NCBI GenBank assembly: GCA_027484165.1 | Contig: JAIXWH010000071.1 | Coordinates: forward strand, 41,366-105,365 | Reading direction: 5' to 3' | Length of the DNA stretch: 64,000 nt | DNA from: Chitinophagaceae bacterium | GTDB taxonomy: Bacteria > Bacteroidota > Bacteroidia > Chitinophagales > Chitinophagaceae | Shown: piece by piece, positions 2,106-37,142 of the stretch | How the letters are laid out: each line of letters starts with the position of its first letter | Position numbering within the stretch: position 1 is the stretch's first letter | Made by a program: the position numbers and the translations under genes | The notes under the pieces: model-generated | The model's database searches: none | Told to the model about the DNA's origin: nothing | What the model saw: the letters and a program-made list of their open reading frames with translations, nothing else

Positions 2106-2228
2106 GTCATCTAATTCAAAAGATTTTACTTTTTAGAAATTGATTTATTCTGCATGTTTTAACAAGAAAAGCACTTTAAGTATAGGTTGATTATCCTTAG
2201 TAGGAATTTGTTTCCATTTTTAATTTGC

Positions 2229-3056
2229 ATGCATAAACGTACTCATTTGAAAACTTATTTTCTATTTTTTCTGCTGATAGGGTTTATCGGAAAAAGCCAG
2301 TCGCTGAAATTCCCATTAAATAATCGTGGCATTTGCATCTCTTCAAAATATCAAAATTCTGACAATCCATTTGTGATTTTTGAAAACCCATCAAACATGA
2401 CAAATGCTAAACAAAAATCATATGGTTTTTTGGGCGGGAATAAATATTTATTGAGAGAATTGTCTCATTTTTCGTTTTCATTTATATCTCCAACCTCATT
2501 AGGTTTTATTGGAATTGGACTGAATTATTTAGGAAATGCTGATTATAATGAGTCTAGTGTGATGTTTGATTATGCGCATAATTTGAATAATAGATCTGCC
2601 GTAGGAGTATTGTTTCAATCACAAATACATAAAACAAGAAACAGCTTATATCAATTTGCATTCGCTGGTGCAGTAGGTATGAATATAGAATTAAATGATA
2701 AAATATCAACAGGTATTTGTATCAAAAATCAGTTTGGTATTAATAAATCTGCAGATGCTTCTTTGGAAAATAAAATAGATGTGTTATCAGAATTGAAATA
2801 TGATGTAACAAAAGACTTTTTGATATCAACAGCAATCTATAAACAATTTAATCATGCGCCTAATGTCATTGTATCCTTAAAGTACCATTACAAAAAAAGA
2901 ATGTTTATTGATTACGGATTTATTGGCGGTATAAATCAAATGTATTTAGGTGTTGGTTTTTCATTTGATAAAATGAATCTTGAAGTCTTCAATTTTTTTC
3001 ATACAGATTTAGGGTATTCGCCTGCGTTACTATTTATACATAACAATGAAAAATGA
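2229..3056 (+). CDS. Putative outer-membrane beta-barrel protein, PorV/PorQ-like
   Basis: Signal-peptide-like N-terminus; FENPSNM motif resembling the NPA motif of PorV/PorQ/FadL-type barrels; alternating amphipathic strands. Start uncertain (2187 TTG, 2229 ATG or 2247 TTG). Stop overlaps the next start (ATGA). Confidence 0.6.
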   Translation: MHKRTHLKTYFLFFLLIGFIGKSQSLKFPLNNRGICISSKYQNSDNPFVIFENPSNMTNAKQKSYGFLGGNKYLLRELSHFSFSFISPTSLGFIGIGLNYLGNADYNESSVMFDYAHNLNNRSAVGVLFQSQIHKTRNSLYQFAFAGAVGMNIELNDKISTGICIKNQFGINKSADASLENKIDVLSELKYDVTKDFLISTAIYKQFNHAPNVIVSLKYHYKKRMFIDYGFIGGINQMYLGVGFSFDKMNLEVFNFFHTDLGYSPALLFIHNNEK

Positions 3057-5492: not shown

Positions 5493-6194
5493 TTAAAGTT
5501 TGCCCTCATCTAAAAAACTGTAGTATCCTTCCTCGCTAACGATGATGTGATCTAGAACTTGAATATCAATTAAAGCGGCTGCCTGTTTTATTTTTTGAGT
5601 AACATCTTCGTCTGCCTTACTAGGGTTCAAATTTCCGGAAGGATGATTATGACTAAGAATTAAACTTGTGGCTCCATGGCTTAAAGCAAGTTTTAGTATG
5701 ATTCTGGGATCCGCAACTGTACCAGTAATACCCCCTCGACTGATCACTTCAAAGTGTATAATTTTATTCGCACGATTTAATAAAACCACAGCAAAGACCT
5801 CATAACTGAGGTCTTTCATTTTTTCACTCAAAAAATTTGCGACTTCGTTACTGTTTTTTATTGATGTCCTTTTAAGGATGTCGGAACTGTTCCTTCGTCT
5901 TCCAATTTCAAGTGCTGCTGCAATAGATGCGGCTTTTGTAATACCAACCCCATTTACTTTTTGTAAATCTCTTATTGATAATTTTCCCAACTCATTAAGA
6001 TTGTTTTCACAGACTTTTAATATTTCCTGACTTAATTCCAGCGCTGATTTATTATTACACCCTGTTCTTAATAAGATAGCCATTAGTTCTGCATTGCTAA
6101 GATAAGTAGCCCCTTGAGATTTTATTTTTTCTCTGGGCTGATCATCTGTTGCCCAGTTTTTCATAGATGTGGAAGTCTTGTTAACATTTTTCAT
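5493..6194 (-). CDS. radC: RadC/JAB (MPN) domain protein
   Basis: DDQPREK, LSNAELMAILLRTG, GVGITKA HhH, HNHPSG and LDHIIV JAB motifs. Confidence 0.93.
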   Translation of the reverse strand: MKNVNKTSTSMKNWATDDQPREKIKSQGATYLSNAELMAILLRTGCNNKSALELSQEILKVCENNLNELGKLSIRDLQKVNGVGITKAASIAAALEIGRRRNSSDILKRTSIKNSNEVANFLSEKMKDLSYEVFAVVLLNRANKIIHFEVISRGGITGTVADPRIILKLALSHGATSLILSHNHPSGNLNPSKADEDVTQKIKQAAALIDIQVLDHIIVSEEGYYSFLDEGKL

Positions 6195-6262
6195 AAAGTT
6201 TCAGAATTAATAATCTAAACTAAATGTATTTTTGCTTAATAAATTTCACAAAAAAAAAACTT

Positions 6263-7219
6263 ATGGATTCAAATGCAAAAATCTTTTCGGGTAGGGGTTC
6301 AAAATATTTAGCAGAGAAAATTGCTGCGAAATTTGGTGAGCCTCTGGGAATTGTTAATGTGCAAGAATTCAGTGATGGTGAGATAGGGGTGGAATTTAAG
6401 GAAAGTATCAGGGGCAAATTCGTTTTTTTGGTTCAGAGTACATTTGCTCCTACTCACAATATAATGGAGTTGCTATTGATGATTGATGCAGCAAAAAGAG
6501 CATCAGCATATAAAGTAATTGCAGTTCTTCCTTACTATGGTTACGCTCGTCAGGATAGAAAAGACAAACCAAGGGTAGCAATTGGTTCTAAATTGGTTGC
6601 AAATATGCTTGTTGCTGCCGGAGCAGACAGAGTTGTTACAATGGATTTACATGCACCACAAATTCAGGGTTATTTTGACATACCAGTAGATCATCTTGAT
6701 TCTTCTGCAATTTTCATACCTTACATTGAAAGCCTTAATTTAAAGAATCTCACTTTTGCCGCACCTGATGTGGGTTCAGCAAACAGAATCAGAGAAATCG
6801 CTTCGTTTTTTGAGTGTGAAATGGTTATTTGTGATAAACACAGAAAAAGAGCAAACGAGATTGCCAGTATGGTTGTAATTGGTGATGTTACAGATAGGGA
6901 TATAGTGTTGATTGATGATATATGCGATACGGGAGGTACATTGGCAAAAAGTGCGGCTTTGATGATGGAAAAGGGAGCACGAAGTGTAAGAGCCTTGTGC
7001 ACGCATCCAGTCCTCAGTGGGAAGGCTTACGAAAATATTGAAAATAGTGTTTTGGATGAATTGGTTGTTTGCGACACCATCCCCTTGAAAAAATCTACTT
7101 CAAAAATAAAAGTTCTTTCAGTTGATGAATTATTTGCAGTTGCACTCAGAAATGCATTTGAGAACAAAAGTATAAACAGTCTTTTTATAAAATCAAGAGC
7201 ACCAAGAGTAAAGAGTTAA
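6263..7219 (+). CDS. prs: Ribose-phosphate pyrophosphokinase
   Basis: FSDGEI, YYGYARQDRK, MDLHAPQIQGYFD, LIDDICDTGGT. Start set at ATG 6263, downstream of the -7 box TATTTTTG (6227-6234). Confidence 0.96.
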   Translation: MDSNAKIFSGRGSKYLAEKIAAKFGEPLGIVNVQEFSDGEIGVEFKESIRGKFVFLVQSTFAPTHNIMELLLMIDAAKRASAYKVIAVLPYYGYARQDRKDKPRVAIGSKLVANMLVAAGADRVVTMDLHAPQIQGYFDIPVDHLDSSAIFIPYIESLNLKNLTFAAPDVGSANRIREIASFFECEMVICDKHRKRANEIASMVVIGDVTDRDIVLIDDICDTGGTLAKSAALMMEKGARSVRALCTHPVLSGKAYENIENSVLDELVVCDTIPLKKSTSKIKVLSVDELFAVALRNAFENKSINSLFIKSRAPRVKS

Positions 7220-10098: not shown

Positions 10099-10761
10099 AT
10101 GTTTAGTAAAAAACAAACCATACTTGTATTTCTTGCTTTTCTCACTATAAAAATAAATGCACAGGAAATTATTTATGATGCAACATTGAATTACAAAGTG
10201 TCTGTGAATTCAGATAATGATAAAAATATTTCTAAAATGTTTGAGGGAGCATCATATAAAATATATTTGAAAGGATTGCTGAGTAAAACAGAGTTAAAAA
10301 CATCTCTAGGTTCTGAAACTTCAATTTATGATGGAAAAGAAAATAGAGGTGCGATATTGAAAGAGTACAGTAATCAAAAGTTAATGATTAATATGGATCA
10401 AGATAGTTGGAATAAAAAAAACAAATCTTCGCACCAACTTCAATTTAATGAAGTAAAAGATAAAATTGAAATCATTAATGGCATTTCATGTAAGAAGGCA
10501 ATAGCTCTTGATACCAAAGGGTCTACAATAGTGGTTTATTTTAATCCGGCATTAATCTTGTTTAATAGTGCATACAATAATTGTTTTTCAAGTATTAAAG
10601 GAATACCAATTAGATATGAACAACAATTAACTAATGGTACAAAATATATCTATTCTTTAGTCAATATAGATTACGAAATTATTTCTTCAAACAAATTTGA
10701 ATTGCCAAAATCTGGTTACAGAATAATAAATTACGAAGAAGCAAATAAAATTGAAAACTAA
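10099..10761 (+). CDS. Secreted hypothetical protein, GLPGLI/DUF4412-like
   Basis: Signal peptide; IEIINGISCKKAIA and IKGIPIRYE resemble the GLPGLI/DUF4412 core; C-terminal FELPKSGY. Confidence 0.6.
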   Translation: MFSKKQTILVFLAFLTIKINAQEIIYDATLNYKVSVNSDNDKNISKMFEGASYKIYLKGLLSKTELKTSLGSETSIYDGKENRGAILKEYSNQKLMINMDQDSWNKKNKSSHQLQFNEVKDKIEIINGISCKKAIALDTKGSTIVVYFNPALILFNSAYNNCFSSIKGIPIRYEQQLTNGTKYIYSLVNIDYEIISSNKFELPKSGYRIINYEEANKIEN

Positions 10762-12760: not shown

Positions 12761-13525
12761 ATGAATTTTAATCTTTCACAAATTCCGGAAAGAACATTAA
12801 AACCCCGTAATCATGGAATTACAATGATTATGGACAAAGGATTAAGTATAGAAGAAGCTAGAAATTTAATGAGTGTTGGACATCCTCATATTGATATGGT
12901 CAAACTTGGATTTGGAACTTCTTTTGTTACACCTAATCTCAAAGACAAACTTGAGGTATATAAATCATACAATATGCCAGTATATTTTGGGGGTACTTTG
13001 TTTGAGGCTTTCTTAATTAGAAATCAATTTGAAGATTACATTAATGTTTGTAAGGATTTTGGTGTTAGTTACATGGAAGTAAGTGATGGGTCTATTTCAA
13101 TCCCTCATGCTGAAAAATGTGGATATATCGAAAAGCTTTCTAAACATGGTGTTGTTTTAAGTGAAGTGGGTAGTAAAGATGCAGCGCATATCATTCCTCC
13201 TTATAAATGGATAGAGCTTATGCGTTCTGAATTGAACGCCGGTTCTCTTTATGTAATAGCAGAAGCACGTGAAGCTGGAAATGTAGGTATTTACAGAGGT
13301 TCGGGTGAGGTAAGGGAAGGATTGGTTCAGGAAATATTAACTCAGATTCCTGCAGAAAAAATATTATGGGAAGCACCACAAAAAGCGCAACAACTCTATT
13401 TTCTTCAGCTTATTGGTTGTAATGTTAACTTAGGAAATATAGCTCCTTCAGAAATCATTGCTTTAGAAGCCATGAGAATTGGCTTGAGAGGAGATACCTT
13501 TGAAATGTATCTTGAAAAAAAATAA
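12761..13525 (+). CDS. comA: Phosphosulfolactate synthase (ComA family)
   Basis: KPRNHGITMIMDKG, VKLGFGT, FGGTLFE, EVSDGSI, SEVGSK, IAEAREAG, WEAPQKAQQ, VNLGNI, LRGDT match the ComA family pattern. Confidence 0.88.
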   Translation: MNFNLSQIPERTLKPRNHGITMIMDKGLSIEEARNLMSVGHPHIDMVKLGFGTSFVTPNLKDKLEVYKSYNMPVYFGGTLFEAFLIRNQFEDYINVCKDFGVSYMEVSDGSISIPHAEKCGYIEKLSKHGVVLSEVGSKDAAHIIPPYKWIELMRSELNAGSLYVIAEAREAGNVGIYRGSGEVREGLVQEILTQIPAEKILWEAPQKAQQLYFLQLIGCNVNLGNIAPSEIIALEAMRIGLRGDTFEMYLEKK

Positions 13526-22822: not shown

Positions 22823-23614
22823 TTATCCTTTGTTGGCAGGATTGAATAGTTCGTTTAAAACACTTGCCAATCTGATACCTCCAATAACAAGTTGCCTTTT
22901 AATCACAGAAATATTATTGTCGATGTATTTTAAGTCCATATAGTTATTTTCAAGAGAATAAACTCTGTCAAGGTAAGAGCGTGACTCATACATCCATTTT
23001 AATTCATTTACTTTCCTGATTTCAGCAATTTCATCATCGGGCATATTTTTATAATAGTTCATGCATGTATCTAAATCAATTCTTTTGTATTCAAGAATTT
23101 GCGTATCCCAAATACTATGTAAATTTCCTGAGACATATGGAGAAGTAATTTCAATTGTGTTTCCTCCCTTGTCGATAGAATAGCCATTATGTAAGGGTTG
23201 ATGAATATCTCCTACCAAATGAAATATTAAGAGCAACCTGTTTTTTATTTCTTTTTTTGACATGTCTGTAGCTTTACGATTTCTCAATTCAACAATTGCA
23301 GAATGTAAAACTGACAAGATATTTTTTTCTGGCCCTGGAGTATATTTGGCTCCTTTATCAATATTGATATAGTGCCAGGGTCTCATGAAGTTGTAATAGC
23401 TGTTACTTCTCTCATTGTCCATCCAATTGGCAGCTTCTTCGATAGTTAAATTACCTAAATATTGTTTTACAATCTTTTGTGTGGAGTCGTCTAATAGTTT
23501 GAAGGCTACTTCAGCAACCAAAGAGTGACCTGTTTTACCCCAAGCCATTGATTTTTGTATACTTCCAACAAAAAATAAAATGGTAAGTACCGGTAAAATA
23601 AAAGTCTTTTTCAT
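22823..23614 (-). CDS. S1/P1 nuclease, secreted
   Basis: Signal peptide ending SMA|WGKTGH exposes the Trp1/His6 Zn ligands; NWMD, WHYINID, HLVGDIHQPLH, DKGGN, NLHSIWD. Start set at ATG 23614. Confidence 0.93.
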   Translation of the reverse strand: MKKTFILPVLTILFFVGSIQKSMAWGKTGHSLVAEVAFKLLDDSTQKIVKQYLGNLTIEEAANWMDNERSNSYYNFMRPWHYINIDKGAKYTPGPEKNILSVLHSAIVELRNRKATDMSKKEIKNRLLLIFHLVGDIHQPLHNGYSIDKGGNTIEITSPYVSGNLHSIWDTQILEYKRIDLDTCMNYYKNMPDDEIAEIRKVNELKWMYESRSYLDRVYSLENNYMDLKYIDNNISVIKRQLVIGGIRLASVLNELFNPANKG

Positions 23615-23629
23615 ACGAATAAATTTGCA

Positions 23630-23637
23630 CGAAACTA
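23630..23637 (-). promoter_or_regulatory. Variant -7 element (TAGTTTCG) for the S1/P1 nuclease; TTG at -33 (23658-23660), 20-nt spacer
   Basis: Read directly on the minus strand. Confidence 0.5.
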
Positions 23638-23650
23638 CAATATTTATATC

Positions 23651-23681
23651 CATATTTCAACATTACAATCAATGAAATATG
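23651..23681. promoter_or_regulatory. Candidate operator: 9-bp perfect inverted repeat with a 13-nt spacer
   Basis: CATATTTCA-N13-TGAAATATG between the divergent nuclease and transporter genes. Confidence 0.45.
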
Positions 23682-23762
23682 TTAAAAGCGAAAACATCCA
23701 ATTCTTTTTAGTTTATAAAGGATTAAAGCCTTAAATTACACCCTCTTAATTCAATAGCGGTT

Positions 23763-26342
23763 ATGATTAAATACAAACTTGGCTTACTTGGATTCTTGCT
23801 TGCTTTTGGAATTTATATTCCAACTTTTGCTCAAGAAAAAATTGTCACTCAAAATGTTGCTTCAGAGGATACTGCTCATGAAGAAATGAAAGATAATCTT
23901 TTAGACAATATTCCAATTGTATCATTAGAAGGCAATGATGATTTGGATGGAAGTGCTCAAAATATTTCAGGACAGCTCAACATTGGCAGAATTACTTTTA
24001 ATAGTGCAGCAGCTTTCAACTTTAATGTTGTTCGTTTTCGTACAAGAGGTTATGATGCAGATATGAATAGTACCTATATGAATGGGGCGCCCATGGAAAA
24101 TCTGGATAATGGTTTTACACCATTTGGATTGTGGGGGGGATTAAATGATGTTTTGCGTAACAGGCAAAATGCATACGGGCTACAATCAAATAAATTTGGA
24201 TTTGGTTCGATCGGTGGAGCTACATCTCTTGATACTAGAGCTTCAAAGCAAAGAAAACAAACAAGTATTGGATATTCTTTGTCTAATAGAAACTATGTTC
24301 ATCGTTTCAATTTCACTAAGTCAACTGGTTTTACCAAAAATGGTTGGGCATTCAGCTTTTCTGGCTCACGCAGATGGGCAGACGAAGGCTTTGCTGATGG
24401 TACTTTCTATAATGGATGGTCGGCATATTTTGGAGTAGATAAAAAAGTTAATGAACAACATTTGTTGTCATTAGTGTTTTTTGCAACTCCTACTGAGAAC
24501 GGACGTCAGGGTGCATCAGTTCAGGAGATGCAGGATTTGGCTGGAACCAATTATTATAATCCTTATTGGGGATATCAAAATGGAAGAAAGAGAAATGCCA
24601 GTATTGCTAAAACAGCTCAACCTATTACTATATTAACCCATGAGTGGAAGGTGGCTCCAAAAACTTCGGTTGTTACTGCTGCTTCATACATGTTTGGAGA
24701 CAGAAGTTTAACAGGATTAGATTGGTACAATGCACCTGACCCAAGACCAGATTATTACCGTTATTTACCAAGTTATCAGGAAGATCCAAATATCAGACAA
24801 CAGGTATACAACGCTATGGCAAACGATATTAATAGACGTCAAATCAACTGGGATGGCTTATATAATGCTAATTATGGCAATTACGAAACCACTCAAAATG
24901 TAAATGGGATTGCAGGTAATACCTATTCAGGAAGAAGATCACTTTACATTCTACAGGAAGCTGTAACCAACACCAAAAAATTTAACTTCAATACGACATT
25001 AAATACCGAAATTAATAAACACATCAGTTTAGTGGGAGGATTAAGCTACGAGAATCAAACCAATCAATATTACAGAAGAGTGAATGATTTATTAGGAGGT
25101 GATTATTTTGTTGATTTAAACCAGTTTGCTGAAAGAGATTTTCCGACCAATCCATTAGCTGCACAAAATAATATCGATAATCCAAATGCTATTCTAAAAG
25201 AGGGTAGTTATTATGGTTATAATTACAAAATCAACATACAAAAAGCAACCGGATGGATTCAAACCAATGTAAAATTACATGGGGTTGATTTCTTTGTAGG
25301 AGCTGAAGGGTCAACAACTAGTTTTTACAGAGAAGGATTAGTAAAATCAGGATTGTTTTTAGATAACTCCTTTGGGAAATCAACCAAATATTCTTTTAAT
25401 AATTATGCATTAAAAGGCGGATTTAGCTCAAAATTGGCTAAAATGAATTATGTATTTGCCAATGCGCGTTATGAAACAAGAGCACCTTATTTTGACAATG
25501 TTTATCTGTCTCCAAGAACTAGAAATACAGTTCAGGATAATTTAAAAAGTGAAACAATTTCATCTTATGAAGCTGGGTATGCTTTGATTGCTCCTACAGT
25601 GAAATTCAGAGCAACCTATTACTATACCGTTCTTTCGAATCAAATGAATGTGTTGACTTTCTATAATGATCAATTGAGGACTGTTGTTAATTATGCATTG
25701 AGTAATATTGGCAAAGTTCATCAGGGATTAGAATTGGGTTCTGAAGTGATTCTTTATAAAGGCTTAACATTGAATGCTGCAGCTGGTATTGGCAACTTCA
25801 AATACAATACCCGTCAATTGGCTACTGTTACTGCTGACAATACTTCAAATGTTTTAGAAAAAGATAAAGTAATTTATTCTTTGAATTATAATGTGCCTAC
25901 ACCTCAGAAAGCCTATAATATCGGAATTAATTACAGATCACCTCAATACTGGTATGTGAATTTGAACTTCAATTATTTTGATGATATGTGGTTGGATTTT
26001 AATCCGGTTAGAAGAACTGAAAGTGCTGTTGATGGCGTAACTCCTGGTTCTGAATTATGGGGTAATATTTTAGATCAGCAGAAACTTAAGCCACAATACA
26101 CTCTTGATTTCTTTGGCGGTTATTCATGGTTGATGAACAAGAGATATAAGTCGCTTGGAAAAAGAACTTTCCTTGTGATAAATATTGGTGTGAGTAATTT
26201 ACTTAACAACACAAATATTGTTTCAGGTGGATATGAGCAATTGAGATTTGATTATGCAGAAAAAAATATCGACAAGTTTCCTGCTAAGAAGTTTTATGCA
26301 TATGGAACCAACTTCTCTGCAAGTGTTGCTTTAAGATTTTAA
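23763..26342 (+). CDS. TonB-dependent receptor-type outer-membrane protein (non-SusC)
   Basis: Signal peptide; plug-like FRTRGYD...TYMNGAPMENLDNGFTPFGLWGGLNDVLR; long amphipathic barrel; C-terminal SVALRF. Confidence 0.88.
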   Translation: MIKYKLGLLGFLLAFGIYIPTFAQEKIVTQNVASEDTAHEEMKDNLLDNIPIVSLEGNDDLDGSAQNISGQLNIGRITFNSAAAFNFNVVRFRTRGYDADMNSTYMNGAPMENLDNGFTPFGLWGGLNDVLRNRQNAYGLQSNKFGFGSIGGATSLDTRASKQRKQTSIGYSLSNRNYVHRFNFTKSTGFTKNGWAFSFSGSRRWADEGFADGTFYNGWSAYFGVDKKVNEQHLLSLVFFATPTENGRQGASVQEMQDLAGTNYYNPYWGYQNGRKRNASIAKTAQPITILTHEWKVAPKTSVVTAASYMFGDRSLTGLDWYNAPDPRPDYYRYLPSYQEDPNIRQQVYNAMANDINRRQINWDGLYNANYGNYETTQNVNGIAGNTYSGRRSLYILQEAVTNTKKFNFNTTLNTEINKHISLVGGLSYENQTNQYYRRVNDLLGGDYFVDLNQFAERDFPTNPLAAQNNIDNPNAILKEGSYYGYNYKINIQKATGWIQTNVKLHGVDFFVGAEGSTTSFYREGLVKSGLFLDNSFGKSTKYSFNNYALKGGFSSKLAKMNYVFANARYETRAPYFDNVYLSPRTRNTVQDNLKSETISSYEAGYALIAPTVKFRATYYYTVLSNQMNVLTFYNDQLRTVVNYALSNIGKVHQGLELGSEVILYKGLTLNAAAGIGNFKYNTRQLATVTADNTSNVLEKDKVIYSLNYNVPTPQKAYNIGINYRSPQYWYVNLNFNYFDDMWLDFNPVRRTESAVDGVTPGSELWGNILDQQKLKPQYTLDFFGGYSWLMNKRYKSLGKRTFLVINIGVSNLLNNTNIVSGGYEQLRFDYAEKNIDKFPAKKFYAYGTNFSASVALRF

Positions 26343-26385
26343 TAATAACATTCAAAACAGATCCTAACTTTTTAAAATAAAAAAC

Positions 26386-27777
26386 ATGAACAAAATACAA
26401 CAAAAGTTAATCACCGCTACAATGCTAGTTGCAGTTGTAATTTTTACTGCTTGTAACAAATCATTTGATGCCCCTCCTGGTCCATCAGATCCAAATATTG
26501 TAGCTAACACTACAATACAGAATTTTAAAACATATCATGTTACACCTTCAGTGCTTGATGATATTACACAGGATGTGATTATTTCAGGTATTGTGGTTGC
26601 AAATGACCAAAGTGGTAATTTTTATAAACAACTGTTTATTCAGGATTCTACTGCCGCAATTCAACTATTGGTTGAAGCTACAGGTTTGTACGCTAGTTAT
26701 CCTGTTGGAAGAAGAGTTTATGTAAAATGCAAAGGATTGACTTTGAGTGATTATTATGGTACTATGCAACTAGGTGTTAAAGCTACTGTTGGTGGTGTAA
26801 CTTCTTTACAGGGTATTCCTGGTGCAGTTGTTTCTAACTATTTGATAGGTGGTTCATTGAATAATCCAGTTGTTCCAATTCCAGTGACTTTGTCTCAATT
26901 GGGTACTGCATTAAATGATAGATACTTAAATGCTTTAATTCAACTTCAAGACTATGAATTCATATCTGGAGATACTACAAAAACTTACTCTGATACCTCT
27001 GCTTACAGAAACACTCAAAATCGTACTATTTCTCAGGGATGTGGATCCTCAAGCACCGTAATCGTTCGTACAAGTGCATATTCTTACTTTACTGGATATG
27101 GTTTACCCAAAGGAAATGGTAGCATCAATGCGATTTATACAGTATACAAATCATTGACAGGAACTGCAACAAAACAGTTAGTGATTAGAGATACTTCAGA
27201 CGTTCATTTTTATAATGCTCGTTGTGGCGCGCCGCCTGCTGGAACAGTGGTTTTGCTAAATGAAGATTTCGAAACTCAAAATGCAACAACAGGAGCGCCA
27301 TACAATCCTATTGCTATCAATGGTTGGACAAACATTTCTGAAATCGGAGCTAGAACTTATTCTGGTAAAATATTCAGCAATAATAAATATGCTTATTTAT
27401 CTGCGTTTGGTTCAGGTAGTCAAGTTAAAACTTGGTTAGTAACCAAAGGGATAAATATGGATAATACAACTACTGAAACGTTGAGTTTTTCCACTCAACA
27501 GGATTACTCAAGTAATGGTTCATCTTCTTTAAAAGTTTTAATATCATCAGATTTCACCGGAACTGGTAATCCTTGGAGTGCAACATGGACGGACATCACA
27601 TCTTTGGCTACTTTGTGTCCACCAAGTGCATCTAACTTCCCGGGTTATGTATCATCAGGCAACATAAATTTAAGTAGTTATACAGGTACTATTTACATCG
27701 CTTTTGTTTATGATGGAACAGATCCTGGCACATCATCTACATGGGAAATAGACAACATTAAAGTTTTTGGTCTCTAA
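26386..27777 (+). CDS. Lipoprotein with a DUF5689 domain and a C-terminal DUF5017/choice-of-anchor-J-like domain
   Basis: Lipobox FTA-C23; IISGIVVANDQSGNFYKQLFIQDSTAAI...YPVGRRVYVKCKGL (DUF5689); LLNEDFE...WLVT...LKVLISSDF...WEIDNIKV (adhesin-like beta-sandwich). Confidence 0.85.
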   Translation: MNKIQQKLITATMLVAVVIFTACNKSFDAPPGPSDPNIVANTTIQNFKTYHVTPSVLDDITQDVIISGIVVANDQSGNFYKQLFIQDSTAAIQLLVEATGLYASYPVGRRVYVKCKGLTLSDYYGTMQLGVKATVGGVTSLQGIPGAVVSNYLIGGSLNNPVVPIPVTLSQLGTALNDRYLNALIQLQDYEFISGDTTKTYSDTSAYRNTQNRTISQGCGSSSTVIVRTSAYSYFTGYGLPKGNGSINAIYTVYKSLTGTATKQLVIRDTSDVHFYNARCGAPPAGTVVLLNEDFETQNATTGAPYNPIAINGWTNISEIGARTYSGKIFSNNKYAYLSAFGSGSQVKTWLVTKGINMDNTTTETLSFSTQQDYSSNGSSSLKVLISSDFTGTGNPWSATWTDITSLATLCPPSASNFPGYVSSGNINLSSYTGTIYIAFVYDGTDPGTSSTWEIDNIKVFGL

Positions 27778-27793
27778 TAAAATAATCATACTC

Positions 27794-27826
27794 ATAAAGA
27801 GCCATCTTTAAAAGGTGGCTCTTTAT
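27794..27826. terminator. Hairpin between the DUF5689 lipoprotein and T9SS cargo genes
   Basis: ATAAAGAGCCATCTTT-AA-AAGGTGGCTCTTTAT; short U-tract. Confidence 0.6.
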
Positions 27827-27854
27827 TCAAATACTAGTTTTAAAAATTTCATTT

Positions 27855-30800
27855 ATGAAAAAAATATTTACTTTTCTTTTTATTCTTGTTTCCTTTTCTA
27901 CCTATTCGCAAATTTTATTTACTGAACAATTTAATTATACTCCAGATGCTGCACTTGGTTTAGCTAATCAAAGTTTAGGAGTTTGGTCAAAAGTAAATAC
28001 TGGAGATTCAATTTTGGTATCTAGTGGAAACCTTTCCTATACTGGTTTAGCAGCTTCTGCGGGGAATAAAATTATTTATGGCGGAAGTGGTACAGATTAT
28101 TTCCGTGGATTTACAAGTCAAACTAGTGGAACGGTTTATTGTTCTTTTTTACTTAATGTAACTTCACTAGGAACTCTTAATGCAAATGGAGGAGGATATA
28201 CTATAGCACTAACCGATAATACAACAGGCTATGGCTCTACCTTATGGATAAGATCAGCAGGGGCATCGAATTTCAATATTGGATTAAACCCAAGAACGAC
28301 TATTGCTAATACGTCTTGGCTTTCTAATTCATTAAGTTTGAATACTAGTTATTTGGTAGTAATTGCACTTGAATCGGTTTCAGGAGCAGCAAACGATATT
28401 AGCAAGATTTGGTTAAACCCTACTAGTTTTGGGGGGACAGAACCTGCGGCTGATGTTTCTGTAACTAATACAGGTACAGATTTGGCCTCAATTCAAAGGG
28501 TTTTATTAAGACAGCATTTAGATACCACAACACCTGCTTCATTAGAAGTAGATGAAATGAGAGTAGGTTTAACATGGGCAGATGTTACTCCAACCGGAGC
28601 TGTTGTGTCAAGCCCAACTCTTTCTGCAGGGACATTAACAAGTTTTGGAAATGTATGCGTAAATTCTACAGTTGGACCCAATTCATTTACAGTTAGTGGT
28701 ACTGATTTAACTTCAGGCGCTATAACAGTTGGACCATTAAGTGGGTATGCATTTTCGTTAACATCAGGCGGTACTTACACCAGCACCGTAACAATATCCC
28801 AAGCAGGAGGCACATTGGCAGCGACTTCAGTTTTTGTAAAATTTACACCAATCGCAGCTCAGTCGTATAGTGGTAATATTTCAATATCTGGTGGCGGTGC
28901 AACTGCAATAAATGTTGCAGCATCCGGAAGCGGAGTGAGTGCAACAAGTGTTACAACAGGATCTGCAACTGCAATCAGCACAAGCGGAGCAACTATAAAT
29001 GGAACATTAGTACAGGGTTGTTCAGTAACAACTGCTTATGGAGTTGAATATAGTACATCTTCAACTTTTACTCCAGGTACTGGAACTGCAATAGCGTCTA
29101 CAAATTTATCAGGTTCTTCATTCACAGTTGTATTGAGCGGGTTAAGTACTTCAACAACATACTACTATGTTGTTTATGTAACTACAGCAAATGGAACAAC
29201 TTATGGAACAATTCAATCATTTACTACTCAAACCCCTTCAACGGGAGGAAGTGGAATCGTGATTAGTCAGGTATACGGTGCCGGTGGAAATCTAAATGCA
29301 TTATATAAGTCAGATTATGTTGAATTGCATAATAAATCAAATACATCAGAAACACTATCTGGCTGTTCAATTCAATATGCATCTGTTAGTCAAACAGGAA
29401 ATTGGACCAGTAAATCATTGCTTCCAACACTTACTATCCCTGCTGGTGGATATTATCTTATTAGAATGACTGCTGATACAAGTTCTTTTGGAGTGGCACT
29501 TGTTGCAGATTTTGTTGTAACGCCATTCATATTGTTGTCAGCTAAAAATGGTAGAGTTGCATTAGTAAGTGATACAACTTTACTTAGTGGATGCCCTTCG
29601 ACATCAAATATCATTGATTTAGTAGGATATGGTCCAGCTACAGTTTGTTCTGAAACAGCTCCTACAGATACATTAAGTATTTCAAGAGCTGCATTCCGTA
29701 ATAATAACGGTTGCGATGACACGAATAATAACTTGGCTGATTTTACAATCGCTTCACCAAGCCCTAGAAACAGCGCAAGTCCAGTTTATTTGTGCGGTAC
29801 AGTAATAACAACACCAACATTAACAGCAAGTTCTTTAACTGCCTTTGGAAATATATGTATCAATGCTACAGGAGGACCTAATTCATTTACAGTTAGCGGT
29901 ACTGATTTAACAGCTGGTGATATTTCTGTTGGCCCATTAAGCGGGTTCACATTCTCATCTGCAACAGGCGGAACATACACGAGTACGTTGACTATTTCGC
30001 AATCAGGAGGAACATTGTCTGCAACAACAGTTTATGTAAAATTTAATCCTACAGCCGTGCAATCTTATAATGGAAATATACCTGTTTCAGGAGGTGGAGC
30101 AACTGCTGTAAATGTTGCTGCTTCTGGTAGTGGTAGTGGTTCTGTAACGCCTGCATTTAATCAAGTTGCTCCTGTTTGTGTAGGAACTCAATTTAGTTTA
30201 CCAACAACTTCAACAAACGGAGTAATCGGTTCATGGTTGCCAGTGATTAATAATCAAACCACTACAACCTATACATTCACACCAAATGTAAGTCAATGTG
30301 CAACCAATACAACAATGACAGTAGTGGTGAATCCTTCTTCATCAGTTAGTGCAACCCCTGTGAGTACTTGTGGTAGTTATACTTGGAATGGGGTTACTTA
30401 CACAAACAGTGGTACGAAAACATGGACAGGTGTAAATGTTAATGGATGTGATTCTGTAGTTACCATAAATCTAACGATTACACAATCTGTTAATCCATCA
30501 TTCAATCAAGTTTCACCTATATGCACCGGTGGAACCTTCACATTACCTACAACCTCAATAAACGGAATTACAGGTTCATGGTTGCCTGCGATAGACAATC
30601 AAAACACAACTACTTATACATTTACACCCGATGCAGGTCAATGTGCTGTTACTGCAAGTATGACTGTAGTAGTTTCATCTGTTACAACTGCAACAACAGG
30701 TTCAGCAACAGCAATCAGTTCAAGCGGAGCAACGGTGAATGGCACATTGCTTCAGGGATGTGCGGCTGCAACCGGATATGGAATTGAGTATGGTACAACA

Positions 30801-32492
30801 TCATTCACTCCAGGAACAGGAACTCAGGTTGCATCTACTAATTTATCGGGTACTTCTTTCTCAGTTGTATTGAGCGGATTGAGTGCATCAACAACTTACT
30901 ATTATGTTGTTTATGTAACTACATCAAATGGAACCGTTTTTGGAACCATACAAACTTTCACTACACAAACCCCATCAACTGGTGGTAGCGGTGTTGTAAT
31001 CAGTCAGGTTTATGGTGGTGGCGGAGGCGCTACCGGTACTTTCAAGTCAGATTATGTTGAATTGCATAATAATAGCGGAACAGCCCAAGATATTTCAGGC
31101 TATAAAATAATTTATGGATCTTCAGCTGGAACTTTAGGTTCTGTAAATACAAACAACTTTACTTTCCCTTCAAATGTGATAATACCTCCAGGAGGATATT
31201 TATTAGTTGCATCAGCTCCAGGTACAGGATTAGCTAATCTCCCCGTTTCTCCTGATTTTACTTTTACATTGAATATGAGTGGAACCAATGGTAAAATTGC
31301 TTTTGGAACAGGATCTTTGCAATCAAATACATCTTATGCAAGTCAACCAGCAGGTTCAGTTTTGGATTTCGTTGGATATGGAACAGCATCTGAATATGAA
31401 ACAGCAGCTACAGGAGCGTTGAGTTCAACCTCTGCAGCTTTTAGAAATGATTTTGGTTGTCAGGATACAGATGATAATCTTGCAAATTTCACCATCAATC
31501 CTCCATTGCCAAGAAACAGTGCAAGTCCTGTTAGTTTATGTGGTCCAATTGTTGGCGTACCTCGTTTGGTGGTATCATCATTAGATGGCTTCGCTGATGT
31601 TTGTCCTAATGCAACTGCAGGCCCAAACACCTTTACAATTAGTGGAACAGACTTAACTACAGCAGATATAAATGTAGGCCCATTGAATGGCTATGCATTT
31701 TCTTTAACCTCAGGCGGACCATACACAAGTACAATAACTGTTAGTCAAACAGGAGGTACTCTTTCTGGAACTACGGTATATGTTCAGTTTACACCAACAT
31801 TAACACAATCATACAATGGAAATATACCAGTTGTTGGCGGTGGAGCAAATACTGTAAATGTTTCGGCAACGGGAAGCGGTGCGATAACTCCCCCAACCGT
31901 ATTAACTGCTGATTCAATTGCTATCAATTCAAATACTGCAATACTAAGAGGAAAAATTACAGGGGTAGGTTGTGATGGTAATTTTAGTTCAATCTTAACC
32001 TATGGAATTGAATACAGTGGGTTACAAAATTTCCCTGTTGGATCAGGAATCAAAGTTAGATCTATTCTTCGTTATGCATCGGACTCAACTTTCTACAGCA
32101 CAATTAATAATTTGGTTCAAAACACCGCTTATTATTACAGATCATATGTTACAACAGCTGATACCATAATTTATGGACAGCAAAAACTATATATAACTCC
32201 TGCAATTCAGGCCGGACTTGTTATTTATGGAACTCCATTACATGCTGGCGAGCCGGTTCATTTCAGCGTAAGTAATGTTAAGACTGATCAATATGGTGTT
32301 AGAATGTTTGATATGACAGGTAGATTGGTTTGCGAAAAGAATTTTTATTTAAATGCAGATGGATTTATCGATAATGGCGGAATCAGTACTCGCGATCAAT
32401 TTATATTACCTGGCCATATTGCTGCAGGAGTATATTCCTTCCAGGTTTCTAGCCCTAATTTCAAAATTCAAAAATTAGTTGTTGTTCAATAA
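27855..32492 (+). CDS. Large T9SS type-A cargo protein with two lamin-tail domains, FN3-like and Ig-like repeats
   Basis: Signal peptide; LTD signatures IVISQVYGAGGN...SDYVELHN and VVISQVYGGGGG...SDYVELHN; FN3-like TYYYVVYVTT; CTD YGVRMFDMTGRLV...AAGVYSFQV...QKLVVVQ. Confidence 0.88.
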   Translation: MKKIFTFLFILVSFSTYSQILFTEQFNYTPDAALGLANQSLGVWSKVNTGDSILVSSGNLSYTGLAASAGNKIIYGGSGTDYFRGFTSQTSGTVYCSFLLNVTSLGTLNANGGGYTIALTDNTTGYGSTLWIRSAGASNFNIGLNPRTTIANTSWLSNSLSLNTSYLVVIALESVSGAANDISKIWLNPTSFGGTEPAADVSVTNTGTDLASIQRVLLRQHLDTTTPASLEVDEMRVGLTWADVTPTGAVVSSPTLSAGTLTSFGNVCVNSTVGPNSFTVSGTDLTSGAITVGPLSGYAFSLTSGGTYTSTVTISQAGGTLAATSVFVKFTPIAAQSYSGNISISGGGATAINVAASGSGVSATSVTTGSATAISTSGATINGTLVQGCSVTTAYGVEYSTSSTFTPGTGTAIASTNLSGSSFTVVLSGLSTSTTYYYVVYVTTANGTTYGTIQSFTTQTPSTGGSGIVISQVYGAGGNLNALYKSDYVELHNKSNTSETLSGCSIQYASVSQTGNWTSKSLLPTLTIPAGGYYLIRMTADTSSFGVALVADFVVTPFILLSAKNGRVALVSDTTLLSGCPSTSNIIDLVGYGPATVCSETAPTDTLSISRAAFRNNNGCDDTNNNLADFTIASPSPRNSASPVYLCGTVITTPTLTASSLTAFGNICINATGGPNSFTVSGTDLTAGDISVGPLSGFTFSSATGGTYTSTLTISQSGGTLSATTVYVKFNPTAVQSYNGNIPVSGGGATAVNVAASGSGSGSVTPAFNQVAPVCVGTQFSLPTTSTNGVIGSWLPVINNQTTTTYTFTPNVSQCATNTTMTVVVNPSSSVSATPVSTCGSYTWNGVTYTNSGTKTWTGVNVNGCDSVVTINLTITQSVNPSFNQVSPICTGGTFTLPTTSINGITGSWLPAIDNQNTTTYTFTPDAGQCAVTASMTVVVSSVTTATTGSATAISSSGATVNGTLLQGCAAATGYGIEYGTTSFTPGTGTQVASTNLSGTSFSVVLSGLSASTTYYYVVYVTTSNGTVFGTIQTFTTQTPSTGGSGVVISQVYGGGGGATGTFKSDYVELHNNSGTAQDISGYKIIYGSSAGTLGSVNTNNFTFPSNVIIPPGGYLLVASAPGTGLANLPVSPDFTFTLNMSGTNGKIAFGTGSLQSNTSYASQPAGSVLDFVGYGTASEYETAATGALSSTSAAFRNDFGCQDTDDNLANFTINPPLPRNSASPVSLCGPIVGVPRLVVSSLDGFADVCPNATAGPNTFTISGTDLTTADINVGPLNGYAFSLTSGGPYTSTITVSQTGGTLSGTTVYVQFTPTLTQSYNGNIPVVGGGANTVNVSATGSGAITPPTVLTADSIAINSNTAILRGKITGVGCDGNFSSILTYGIEYSGLQNFPVGSGIKVRSILRYASDSTFYSTINNLVQNTAYYYRSYVTTADTIIYGQQKLYITPAIQAGLVIYGTPLHAGEPVHFSVSNVKTDQYGVRMFDMTGRLVCEKNFYLNADGFIDNGGISTRDQFILPGHIAAGVYSFQVSSPNFKIQKLVVVQ
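28614..31880 (+). repeat. Intragenic domain repeats: unit A x3 (~28614-28934, ~29814-30137, ~31560-31880), FN3-like B (~28935-29255, ~30680-30990, divergent third copy ~31890-32200), LTD x2, unit D x2
   Basis: AATTCATTTACAGTTAG(T/C)GGTACTGATTTAAC occurs at 28680 and 29880, exactly 1200 nt apart; protein repeats GPNSFTVSGTDLT...GGGATA.NV and FNQV.P.C.G..F.LPTTS.NG..GSWLP. Confidence 0.85.
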
Positions 32493-34473: not shown

Positions 34474-36180
34474 TCAGGAACTGAGTCTGCAATCCACAAC
34501 CATCAGTTGAAGTCTTTTATTGCCATTCCATTCGTTTTCATCCATCGTGAAAACAATGTCGAATGGCTTTCCTGATTTTACGATATCCAATTTATCTGGC
34601 ATTTTAAAACCAATGCCAGATAAAATGTTATTGTTTTGTTTGACGTTGAATCTGATATGCTGTTCTTTCAGTAAATCTGAATGGCCAGTGTCTTCTACTT
34701 TCTCGGCTATAAATACAGGCCTCATGTTATCAGGCCCAAAGGGTTCCATTTGATTGATGATGTTGTAGAAGCTTTGATTGATGTCTTGAAAGTTGATTTT
34801 TGTATCAATGACAATCTCTGGAATTAATAAATCATCTGTAATTGAATTACTAACCACCTCTTCAAATTTCTTAATGAATGCATCTACGTTTTCTGGCAAC
34901 ATTGATAATCCTGCTGCAGCAAAGTGTCCTCCAAAAACAGTAAGTAAATCTTTACATTCATATATAGCTTCGTATAAATTAAAACCTTTCACACTTCTGG
35001 CACTGCCTGTTACAATGCCATCACTTTTGGTTAAAACTATGGTTGGTTTATAATGGTGCTCAATGATTCTTGAGGCAACTATACCAACCACTCCTTTATG
35101 CCAATGCTCACGGTAAACCACACACGATTTTCTATTAAGCATCTCTTGACTTTCATTAATAATTTCCAATGCTTCTTGTGTGATACTTGTGTCGGCTTCT
35201 TTTCTGTCTGTGTTATCTGATTGTAATTCTTCGCCAAAAGACGCTGCTAAGTGAGGATCAGTTTCGATAAAAAGTTGTACAGCTTTTTTCGCATCATCCA
35301 TTCTTCCAGCGGCATTTATTCGTGGAGCAATCACAAATACCACATTGTGTATATTTAATTTTTTCTCTAGTTTTCCAATATTGATTAGTGTCTTTATTCC
35401 CAGAGATGGATCTTCATTGATTTTTTTCATCCCGTAATAGGCAAGAATTCTGTTTTCGCCAACCATGGGTACAATATCAGCGGCAATTGCAATCGCAACT
35501 AGATCCAGATATTTAAGATAGCTTGATGCATCTTTTTTTAATTGATCTGAAATAGCCATCATTAATTTAAATCCTATGCCACATCCGCAAAGATCTTTGA
35601 AAGGGTAGTTACAATCTAGTTGTTTTGGGTTTAAAATTGCGTAAGCATCAGGTAATGTAATTCCTGGAAGATGGTGATCGCAAATCACAAAATCAATACC
35701 TAGAGTTTTTGCGTAGGAAATGAGTTCCACCGATTTAATACCACAATCCAAACAAACGATTAGTGAAAAATCATGTTCTGCAGCAAAATTGATACCAGCT
35801 TTACTCACGCCATAACCTTCTCTGTATCTATGAGGAATGTAGAAATCAATTTTATCTTTAGTATAGATGTCTGATAAAAATTGAAAAAAAGAGGCAACTG
35901 CTGTTGTGCCATCAACATCGTAATCGCCAAAAACCAAAATTTTTTCATTGTTGTGTTTTGCAGATAAAATTCTTTCTACAGCTTTGTCCATGTCTTTCAT
36001 CAACCATGGGTCATGCAAGTCGCTTATTAATGGGCGAAAATATTTTTTTGCGTTATCAAAATCATCGTAACCCCTTTGAGCAAGTATGCGGCATAAAGGC
36101 TCACTGATTTTTAAAGCATTAGTAAGTTTTTGAGTTTCCGAATTATATTCAGGAAGTATATTCCATCTTTTTTGTACCAT
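34474..36180 (-). CDS. recJ: Single-stranded-DNA-specific exonuclease RecJ
   Basis: FGDYDVDG, YIPHRYREGYG, CLDCG, CDHH, PRINAAGR, GSARS, FGGHFAAAG, EPFGPDN. ATG 36180 overlaps the upstream stop (TGATG). Confidence 0.97.
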   Translation of the reverse strand: MVQKRWNILPEYNSETQKLTNALKISEPLCRILAQRGYDDFDNAKKYFRPLISDLHDPWLMKDMDKAVERILSAKHNNEKILVFGDYDVDGTTAVASFFQFLSDIYTKDKIDFYIPHRYREGYGVSKAGINFAAEHDFSLIVCLDCGIKSVELISYAKTLGIDFVICDHHLPGITLPDAYAILNPKQLDCNYPFKDLCGCGIGFKLMMAISDQLKKDASSYLKYLDLVAIAIAADIVPMVGENRILAYYGMKKINEDPSLGIKTLINIGKLEKKLNIHNVVFVIAPRINAAGRMDDAKKAVQLFIETDPHLAASFGEELQSDNTDRKEADTSITQEALEIINESQEMLNRKSCVVYREHWHKGVVGIVASRIIEHHYKPTIVLTKSDGIVTGSARSVKGFNLYEAIYECKDLLTVFGGHFAAAGLSMLPENVDAFIKKFEEVVSNSITDDLLIPEIVIDTKINFQDINQSFYNIINQMEPFGPDNMRPVFIAEKVEDTGHSDLLKEQHIRFNVKQNNNILSGIGFKMPDKLDIVKSGKPFDIVFTMDENEWNGNKRLQLMVVDCRLSS

Positions 36181-37142
36181 CAAAATTTTCTGTCTGTTGT
36201 AAATCTAACTAATTCTTCCATAGATTTTTTTACGGGTGAATCATCAAAATGATTCAATATCTCTAACGATTTATCGCGATATTTATTCATTTGTGTTGTA
36301 GCGTACTCGATACCGCCAGATTTTATTACGCAATCAATTACAAATTTAATTTTCTCATTGTTTCTATTCTTGTTTTTCAAGATGTATAATAACTCCTTTC
36401 TGGTGGTTTTATCAACTTTGTTGATGGTGTATATCAACGGTAAAGTCAGTTTTTTCTCTTTAATGTCATTACCTGTTGGCTTGCCTATCTGAGATGACCC
36501 GTAGTCCAGTAAATCATCTTTGATTTGAAAAGCTATTCCAACAAATTCGCCAAATTTTTTCATGAGTTCAGACTTTTCATGGCTATTGGTTGTACTGTAT
36601 GCTCCGATTGCACATGCAGAAGCCAAAAGTGATGCAGTTTTGTTTTTTACAATTTCAAAATATACTTCTTCGCTAAGATTCAGATTTCTTGATTTTTCCA
36701 TTTGTAATAATTCTCCCTCACTCATTTTTTTTACAGCATCAGAAAGAATATGTAAATGCTGAAAGTCTTCATTTGCAGTAGATAATAAAAGGCCTCTCGA
36801 AAGCAGATAGTCGCCAACTAATACAGCAATCTTATTTTTCCAAATGGCATTTATTGAAAAATAACCTCTTCTTTCAAATGATTCATCAACAACATCATCA
36901 TGAACAAGTGTGGCGGTATGTAAAAGCTCCACCAATGTTGCTGCCCTGTATGTCCCTTCATTGACTTCTCCATTCAATTTAGCACATAAAAAAACAAACA
37001 TAGGTCTGATTTGCTTTCCTTTTCGCTTGATGATATATTTCATAACACGATCCAGTAGAGGGGTGTTACTTTTCATAGATAAGGCAAACTTTTTTTCAAA
37101 AATGCTTAATTCTTCTTGTATGCAGGTAATATTTGGCTTCAT
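36180..37142 (-). CDS. ispB: Polyprenyl diphosphate synthase (octaprenyl-type)
   Basis: GKQIRP, LVHDDVVD (FARM), KTASL, FQIKDDLLD (SARM), GNDIKEKK. Confidence 0.88.
   Translation of the reverse strand: MKPNITCIQEELSIFEKKFALSMKSNTPLLDRVMKYIIKRKGKQIRPMFVFLCAKLNGEVNEGTYRAATLVELLHTATLVHDDVVDESFERRGYFSINAIWKNKIAVLVGDYLLSRGLLLSTANEDFQHLHILSDAVKKMSEGELLQMEKSRNLNLSEEVYFEIVKNKTASLLASACAIGAYSTTNSHEKSELMKKFGEFVGIAFQIKDDLLDYGSSQIGKPTGNDIKEKKLTLPLIYTINKVDKTTRKELLYILKNKNRNNEKIKFVIDCVIKSGGIEYATTQMNKYRDKSLEILNHFDDSPVKKSMEELVRFTTDRKF

Follow-up and report, generated by a model that had tools for sequence, protein, structure and literature searches.

Positions 22823 to 32492 of a 64,000-nt stretch of DNA from a Chitinophagaceae bacterium (NCBI GenBank assembly GCA_027484165.1, contig JAIXWH010000071.1, positions 41,366 to 105,365 of the forward strand; hereafter the window) contain four long open reading frames (ORFs): an S1/P1 nuclease gene on the minus strand and, on the plus strand, genes for an outer membrane barrel of the TonB-dependent transporter (TBDT) type, a DUF5689 lipoprotein, and a large protein carrying two lamin-tail domains (LTDs) and a sorting domain of the type IX secretion system (T9SS). 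The four genes had been correctly located in a preliminary description, in which the locus was read as a nucleic-acid utilization locus resembling a polysaccharide utilization locus (PUL). That reading proved essentially right, by way of the related transporter pairs of Bacteroides and Riemerella and of the linkage between nuclease and transporter genes described below. Extracellular DNA and RNA are major organic phosphorus and nitrogen pools in lakes, and the Bacteroidota are suspected to be key consumers of both. To our knowledge, the only previous descriptions of such an import route come from a gut Bacteroides and from a bird pathogen, in which it was presented as a competence system. The barrel/lipoprotein system itself is already known, having been described in 2021 (Riemerella) and 2025 (Bacteroides). 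What is new here is the displacement of an EEP nuclease by an S1/P1 enzyme, a barrel without a CarboxypepD_reg domain, a large non-catalytic lamin-tail T9SS partner, and the neighborhood statistics that tie nuclease to transporter.

Products of the four genes

The nuclease matches PF02265 (E 5.6e-49, 167.7 bits against a cut-off of 29.5), and its zinc-ligand motifs, earlier described as intact, retain all nine ligands (W25, H30, D66, H81, H132, D136, H142, H166, and D170 in precursor numbering). The PDB matches include AtENDO2 (4cxo, 7.5e-25), a bacterial S1/P1 enzyme (8qjl), S1 (5fb9), and P1 (1ak0), and W25 of the query aligns with residue 1 in every solved mature S1/P1 enzyme; cleavage of the precursor is predicted at SMA↓W, which gives a mature enzyme that starts with the catalytic Trp. 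Translation is likelier to start at Met14 (23614) than at 23653, because a TAnnTT-type -7 box falls inside the longer ORF and Met14 opens a normal signal peptide; with this start, and only with it, the divergent spacer has the previously given length of 148 nt. The only export signal of the enzyme is a type-I signal peptide; both a lipobox and a T9SS tail are lacking, and for this reason the enzyme is probably periplasmic by Bacteroidota sorting rules, like DdbB of Bacteroides (see below), and not extracellular. Enzymes of the S1/P1 family prefer single-stranded nucleic acid and RNA, yield 5'-mononucleotides, and have 3'-nucleotidase activity.

The barrel shows a weak Pfam match to PF00593 only (3.7e-7) and has no SusC signature. 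The window barrel gave no Pfam match to Plug even at E≤10 and none to CarboxypepD_reg, a domain that varies among lineages (present in the relatives at loci L040, L046, L050, and L058, not in L043). An AlphaFold (AF2) model built on 42 homologs is of moderate confidence (mean predicted local distance difference test score, pLDDT, of 67, with aa 19-102 below 50), and on it the protein has the 22-strand TBDT barrel fold. The top 50 Foldseek matches are all TBDTs (E 1e-20 to 6e-17, target TM 0.55-0.68), of which PqqU, Fiu, FecA, YncD, and OprC are the closest PDB entries (E ~1e-20); no SusC is found among the 50, in keeping with the non-SusC, TonB-dependent type first assigned to this protein. 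The first ~140 mature residues are poorly modeled, yet they form the most conserved stretch of the barrel family, with a TonB-box-like motif (DNIPIVSL, aa 48-55) and a second block, FRTRGYDAD..YMNGAPMEN (aa 92-113), whose family-level form is FRxRGYDAD...YMNGxPMEN. This region aligns with segments of relatives that score 21.5-25.7 bits for Plug, which is marginal to the cut-off of 23.9. The database contains 4,927 relatives of the barrel at E≤1e-5.

The lipoprotein, in which Cys23 is invariant, matches PF18942 (DUF5689, 6.2e-55) and PF16409 (DUF5017, 1.8e-13), and its C-terminal part matches NF038128 (choice-of-anchor J, 5.2e-18). With NF052645, the 'M949_1556 family lipoprotein', residues 8-460 align to positions 7-456 of 457 (241 bits, E 2e-71); the cut-off of 475 is missed, and the protein thus has the architecture of this family and lies outside the curated subfamily. 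Its AF2 model (mean pLDDT 85.7) consists of two OB-like β-barrels within DUF5689 and a C-terminal jelly roll. The OB assignment draws on the strand patterns of the model, which are OB-like, and on a weak Pfam match of one relative to an OB fold; the published HIN/p202 similarity of DUF5689 was not reproduced by the lipoprotein fold and PDB profile searches, and the profile search of PDB sequences with the lipoprotein gave no match. By analogy with the characterized systems discussed below, the lipoprotein is presumed to be the nucleic-acid-binding lid of the barrel.

The large protein has an N-terminal signal peptide seen in its sequence (MKKIFTFLFILVSFSTYSQ), a β-rich N-terminal domain (aa 20-250) without family assignment, three Ig-like and three fn3-like modules, two LTDs, two Cys-rich repeats, and a C-terminal type A sorting domain. 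PF00932 matches in two stretches (1.9e-22), and the SQVYG...DYVELHN signature is present in both LTDs (aa 471/487 and 1050/1066). The C-terminal 92 aa, scanned alone, score 25.6 bits for TIGR04183 against a cut-off of 23 (homologs 25.6-29.6 bits), and the C-terminus reaches 17 bits for Pfam PF18962, below the cut-off of 27. No catalytic domain (nuclease or phosphatase) was found in this protein or in 24 syntenic homologs (829-2,150 aa); among the 25 proteins, fn3 is present in 18 and LTD in 17. The product is, as previously proposed, a T9SS cargo with two LTDs and no catalytic function of its own, and would be a binding or scaffold protein and not an enzyme. An LTD/T9SS gene follows the lipoprotein gene in nearly all Chitinophagaceae loci and is missing from five S1/P1-type loci, in which htpG is directly next. 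We therefore regard the protein as a frequent but dispensable accessory; its being non-catalytic stands among the distinctive features first listed for the locus, while its weight as one of them is lessened by these five absences. The lamin-tail T9SS proteins are nevertheless recurrent candidate partners of the transporter.

The LTD/T9SS protein varies in length from 829 to 2,150 aa among close relatives (L004, L023, L025, and L061) through gain and loss of Ig, fn3, and LTD modules, with 1,788 aa in the relative at 90% identity, and the N-terminal 250-aa domain is common to only part of the homologs. In some S1/P1-type loci (L080:7876-10968, L098:7909-11010), an extra gene of ~1,030 aa right after the nuclease encodes a protein with an N-terminal LTD, a T9SS tail, and ~800 central residues without family assignment.

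Table 1. Coordinates of the genes, domains, and intergenic features of the locus
Feature	Position in window	Strand	Basis
S1/P1 nuclease gene	22823..23614, ORF open to 23653	-	PF02265
Divergent intergenic region, 148 nt	23615..23762		sequence and homologous-spacer comparison
Outer membrane barrel, 859 aa, DdbC / RA0C_RS04915 type	23763..26342	+	weak PF00593, TBDT fold
Lipoprotein, 463 aa, DUF5689+DUF5017	26386..27777	+	PF18942, PF16409
Stem-loop, 15 bp, lipoprotein/large-protein spacer	27794..27826	+	sequence and RNA fold
T9SS cargo, 1,545 aa, two lamin-tail domains	27855..32492	+	PF00932, TIGR04183
Lamin-tail domain 1	aa ~468-612 = 29256-29690	+	PF00932
Lamin-tail domain 2	aa ~1042-1178 = 30978-31388	+	PF00932
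Type A sorting domain	aa 1454-1545 = 32214-32489	+	TIGR04183

Neighborhood census and exchange of the nuclease

A search with the lipoprotein, at one genome per species, returned 60 loci, and the 38 in which a family barrel was present and the upstream DNA was long enough formed the census set. The relatives of the window in this search are freshwater Ferruginibacter-like Chitinophagaceae metagenome-assembled genomes (MAGs) at 48-75% identity; the window sequence is itself present in aquatic metagenomes, and such metagenomes, from freshwater among others, are also the source of the relatives. A nuclease with a signal peptide lies directly upstream of the barrel in 37 of the 38 loci. A neighborhood survey had been named at the outset as a test of the nucleic-acid reading, and it shows nucleases to be enriched beside the transporter/DUF5689 pairs. 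In 30 loci, 20 of them from Chitinophagaceae and 10 from Flavobacteriales, Crocinitomicaceae, or Bacteroidales, the upstream nuclease belongs to the EEP type (PF19580, E 1e-111 to 4e-129; ~346 aa), and in seven it is an S1/P1 enzyme. In the reverse search, every one of the 45 Chitinophagaceae S1/P1 genes with an identity of 48% or more to that of the window sits head-to-head with a barrel and lipoprotein, as does none of the 35 S1/P1 genes that are more distant (from Flavobacterium, Proteobacteria, Legionella, and others), so that the arrangement is found in 45 species-level Chitinophagaceae genomes plus the window. Among EEP relatives, 21 of 26 assessable genes adjoin the barrel and lipoprotein pair.

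In the barrel tree, all outgroups carry the EEP enzyme; within the Chitinophagaceae, the EEP-type loci form one clade and the S1/P1-type loci, all but one, form another. No EEP gene is retained near any S1/P1-type locus, and no EEP homolog occurs within the 64-kb window. A pattern scan for EEP genes retained elsewhere in the S1/P1-type genomes gave 27 loci, none of them from those genomes, and was uninformative. Both kinds of nuclease have a type-I signal peptide only, as DdbB does. On this comparative evidence, we conclude that the S1/P1 enzyme is a non-orthologous displacement of the ancestral, DdbB-like EEP nuclease in the same periplasmic slot. That the slot persists despite the exchange of enzyme family would be difficult to account for if nuclease and transporter did not act together, and is strong comparative evidence of their joint work. 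The S1/P1 enzyme had been singled out as distinctive of the locus, which holds in comparison with the published loci but not within the family, where it is standard throughout a Chitinophagaceae lineage in which EEP was displaced.

The position of the module is fixed across the Chitinophagaceae, between the S12-S7-EF-G (str) operon and htpG-recJ, and the barrel/lipoprotein pair belongs to the conserved, syntenic content of freshwater genomes of this family. The relative L061, which is 90% identical, has the same four genes. Distant Flavobacteriales loci encode a second DUF5689 lipoprotein and a T9SS cargo resembling a carbohydrate-binding module (CBM) instead of the LTD/T9SS gene.

Two further observations concern the relatives. 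A predicted cytoplasmic 3'-5' exonuclease of ~245 aa (PF10108, PolB-exo-like, no signal peptide; L004:5402-6139) is encoded beside the nuclease in most Chitinophagaceae loci (~25), of both the EEP and the S1/P1 type, and is gone from the window and from L061. Three loci of marine Flavobacteriales MAGs (L051, L056, and L057) contain the choice-of-anchor J C-terminal domain only, beside a canonical TBDT that has a strong Plug match and shares no more than 22% identity with the barrel of the window; it would seem that another family of transporters makes use of this lipoprotein domain as well.

Related systems and proposed function

Two characterized systems contain a transporter pair of this type. 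In Riemerella anatipestifer, natural transformation requires both the outer membrane barrel RA0C_RS04915 and the adjoining DUF5689+DUF5017 protein RA0C_RS04920, and deletion of either gene abolishes it (Huang et al. 2021, PMC8459023); across the Bacteroidota the two genes are broadly conserved as neighbors, and an RS04915 homolog in the genus Flavobacterium is 59.6% identical (PMC8459023). In Bacteroides thetaiotaomicron, deletion of the PUL-like locus ddbABCDEF abolished DNA depletion (Sharan et al., bioRxiv 10.1101/2025.03.18.642099 / PMC12478041). The TBDT DdbC and the DUF5689 protein DdbD of this locus are homologous to the Riemerella pair, and DdbB is a periplasmic nuclease with a type-I signal peptide; in Riemerella, too, a nuclease resembling DdbB lies beside the pair (PMC12478041). 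The ddb locus is evidently the gut Bacteroides locus of transporter, DUF5689 protein, and nuclease to which the preliminary description referred. From the described gene order and the shared Pfam and NCBIfam families, we assign the window pair to the DdbCD / RA0C_RS04915-04920 type, an assignment that also draws on the sub-threshold full-length match to NF052645 and on the 32-33% identity of the window barrel to the barrels of Flavobacterium loci, which may or may not include the published homolog.

As in ddb, the barrel gene is followed by that of the DUF5689 lipoprotein, a periplasmic nuclease lies beside the barrel, an extra surface protein is encoded, and SusD and glycoside hydrolases are missing. 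The ddb locus encodes three nucleases, two of which are surface lipoproteins, whereas the window locus has a single S1/P1 enzyme, none extracellular, and this enzyme occupies the place of a periplasmic nuclease of the DdbB type. The window lipoprotein has a DUF5017/choice-of-anchor J domain beyond DdbD, a T9SS cargo of 1,545 aa with LTDs takes the place of an SPII lipoprotein such as DdbE as accessory surface protein, and the locus belongs to a free-living Chitinophagaceae bacterium of freshwater and not to a gut Bacteroides. Riemerella resembles the window in that the genes for the barrel and for the DUF5689+DUF5017 choice-of-anchor J protein adjoin each other and a nuclease gene lies next to them. 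The Riemerella barrel, however, has an N-terminal CarboxypepD_reg domain, which is present in the scanned Flavobacteriales and Bacteroidales relatives and lacking in the window barrel; the nucleases belong to different families; the Riemerella pair is a few genes from comEC and recA (as judged from locus-tag numbers, PMC8459023), whereas the scanned parts of the window contain no com gene; and the function shown in Riemerella is transformation, not catabolism.

With SusC/SusD PULs the locus shares a barrel with a lipoprotein lid, surface capture proteins, a periplasmic hydrolase, and a divergent/co-directional layout, but it lacks the SusD family and the SusC signature, its barrel resembles classical TBDTs, and its hydrolase is a nuclease. 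As stated in the preliminary description, no SusD or glycoside hydrolase was found among the scanned window ORFs on either side or among the called genes around close relatives. In the way it works the locus resembles a PUL, without being one.

Secreted LTD proteins that act on extracellular DNA offer a further comparison. The extracellular fn3+LTD+Endonuclease_1 nucleases Fjoh_4721/4723 of Flavobacterium johnsoniae, which share fn3 as well, are induced by phosphate depletion (PMC8115612), and the in vitro activity of the Shewanella nuclease ExeM falls on LTD deletion (PMC6085458); unlike these and other ExeM/NucH/EndA-type LTD nucleases, the large protein of the window has no nuclease domain. 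Fjoh_3841, a TBDT of F. johnsoniae induced by phosphate starvation and with a CarboxypepD_reg match only (PMC8115612), was considered as a member of the barrel family; at 120 kDa and with different neighbors its membership is doubtful, and it was not used.

On balance, we think it probable that the locus serves to capture extracellular nucleic acid, to import it with energy from TonB, and to digest it in the periplasm, and that it is the Chitinophagaceae version of a DdbCD-type transporter. In the scheme that follows, the cellular location of the products, their binding of nucleic acid, the part played by the LTD protein, and the use of the system to the cell are all inferred. The lamin-tail/fn3/Ig protein displayed by the T9SS would hold DNA or RNA polymers on the surface of the cell. 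The DUF5689 lipoprotein would bind nucleic acid through its tandem OB-like domains and act as a lid on the barrel as SusD does on SusC, as suggested by homology and by the DdbC-DdbD model, and the TonB-dependent-type barrel would bring DNA or oligonucleotides into the periplasm. There, the S1/P1 enzyme, placed by its signal peptide and assigned its chemistry from family knowledge, would cut imported single-stranded DNA, RNA, and oligonucleotides to 5'-mononucleotides, which might supply phosphate as well as nucleosides for salvage by enzymes encoded elsewhere.

Several observations weigh against this proposal. [quoted passage not shown] No nucleotidase, phosphatase, or nucleoside transporter was found among the scanned window ORFs or the called genes near close relatives, and one lake metatranscriptome had only trace contigs over the locus, on the barrel and the large gene. 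On the structural side, Foldseek with the whole lipoprotein model matched only the C-terminal jelly roll, and the barrel N-terminal region can be read only tentatively as a divergent plug, Plug being absent by Pfam and the model of low confidence there.

The alternative we take most seriously, though we judge it unlikely, is uptake for natural transformation, which the preliminary description left out although a transporter pair of the same type is essential for it in Riemerella (PMC8459023). The pair would then import intact DNA for ComEC, DprA, and RecA, with the nuclease only trimming the DNA or converting it to a form that can be carried across the inner membrane, a role that may coexist with catabolism. 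Besides the requirement for both RS04915 and RS04920 (PMC8459023), this explanation draws on the DUF5689+DUF5017 architecture of the window lipoprotein, which is of Riemerella type and aligns at full length to an NCBIfam model named after a Riemerella gene, and on the DdbB-like nuclease beside the Riemerella genes too (PMC12478041). A single-strand-specific periplasmic nuclease that makes mononucleotides would, however, destroy transforming DNA, and fits catabolism better. The gene recJ lies two genes downstream in conserved synteny, which would suit transformation, but this synteny is probably incidental, as it includes htpG and other housekeeping genes; no gene for ComEC, ComF, DprA, or a ComEA-like protein was found among the scanned window ORFs or the called genes near close relatives. 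F. johnsoniae has all the homologs and is not transformable under the conditions tested (PMC8459023), and gut Bacteroidales with ddb loci show no consistent DNA uptake for transformation (PMC12478041). Competence, moreover, is not known from the Chitinophagaceae.

A bolder form of the import scheme is also rather doubtful. Its starting point is that a strictly single-strand-specific S1/P1 enzyme has taken the periplasmic place of a general EEP DNase, an exchange that may show what the transporters bring into the periplasm. It holds that the family delivers single-stranded DNA or RNA threaded through the TonB-opened barrel, and that the lamin-tail/T9SS protein is a surface DNA-capture device in the role that the competence pilus has in Proteobacteria. 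If true, the Chitinophagaceae variant would be a natural experiment on polymer import by a TBDT, and lamin-tail domains would gain a function as bacterial nucleic-acid receptors.

The passage from an EEP DNase to an S1/P1 enzyme could instead mark a shift of substrate, the module being chiefly an importer of RNA or oligoribonucleotides, and RNA is abundant after viral lysis in lakes. The family preference of S1/P1 enzymes for single strands and RNA, together with their 3'-nucleotidase activity, the stability of the swap over at least 45 species-level genomes, and the freshwater and other aquatic metagenomes from which the window and its relatives come, are in agreement with this idea. We nevertheless hold it to be improbable. 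Barrel and lipoprotein show no obvious break between the two types, which fall in one continuous tree at 58-63% (EEP type) versus 70-81% (S1/P1 type) identity to the window, and the enzyme specificity is here taken from the family only, in which S1/P1 enzymes also digest the single-stranded DNA and oligodeoxynucleotides that a threaded import would deliver.

That the pair imports a glycan, a peptide, or another compound beside an unrelated nuclease and LTD protein is very hard to credit: the lipoprotein does have Foldseek matches to CBM, MAM, and adhesin jelly rolls, with a C-terminal domain resembling carbohydrate-binding modules, the distant locus L050 has a protease-like T9SS protein in place of the nuclease, and CBM_4_9 T9SS cargo occurs in some distant loci, but a nuclease adjoins in 37 of 38 independently found loci, which come from different families and whose nucleases have two unrelated folds, and published genetics link the pair to DNA in two species (PMC12478041, PMC8459023).

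As a candidate system for the capture and digestion of nucleic acid, the locus supplies genes for study of environmental DNA and RNA turnover, and it bears on whether such transporters serve feeding, gene transfer, or both.

Intergenic regions and flanking genes

The divergent spacer contains Bacteroidota-type -7 boxes for both transcription units, TAAATTAC at ~30 nt ahead of the barrel ATG and TAGTTTCG on the minus strand ahead of the nuclease ATG. A central ATATGTTAA at 23676-23684 resembles a TGTTA/TGTTAACA motif that recurs in homologous spacers. In comparisons of sets of 33 and 38 homologous spacers, CAAAGGTA/TACCTTTG was found in 13 sequences against 0.2 expected, and TATGTTAA in 8 against 1.1 expected, a count that does not beat the family-wise null. 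An element like TGTTA/TGTTAACA lies mid-spacer in L004, L012, L020, L026-28, L035, L043, L049, L077-83, and L106, whatever the nuclease type; in loci of Crocinitomicaceae and in some of Chitinophagaceae it forms a clear palindrome. The element may serve as a common operator, a lead only, as it is not significant family-wise. A scan for sigma-70 promoters and terminators gave fewer matches than shuffled sequences and is uninformative for Bacteroidota, TAnnTTTG showed no window-wide enrichment, and an Rfam scan of the whole window found no family at gathering score, hence no known riboswitch in the spacer.

The barrel and lipoprotein genes are on a common strand with a gap of 43 nt. The next spacer contains the hairpin at 27794-27826 and folds at -20.6 kcal/mol (z = -6.7), and none of 200 shuffles was as stable. 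The hairpin may be a terminator or attenuator, a processing site, or a transcript-stabilizing element. Its place between the lipoprotein and large-protein genes implies that the latter may be transcribed partly alone, possibly from a promoter of its own (TAGTTTTA at 27835-27842).

The locus is flanked by housekeeping genes, those for S12, S7, and EF-G on one side and those for HtpG, RecJ, BamD, RpoZ, and CoaBC on the other. Genes related to DNA or nucleotides are found nearby, namely recJ (34474-36183; two genes downstream of the locus in conserved synteny), radC (5493-6194), and the gene for phosphoribosyl pyrophosphate synthetase (6224-7219); all three were considered as parts of the system and rejected, htpG, polyprenyl synthetase, bamD, and rpoZ being in the same synteny. 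Three ORFs of the window had no Pfam match at E≤1e-5 (2187-3056, 289 aa; 3053-5098, 681 aa; and 10099-10761, 220 aa). A phosphosulfolactate synthase gene (ComA, PF02679, 2.4e-88) lies at 12761-13525, and its presence in a Chitinophagaceae genome may point to a link with sulfonolipid or sulfonate metabolism.

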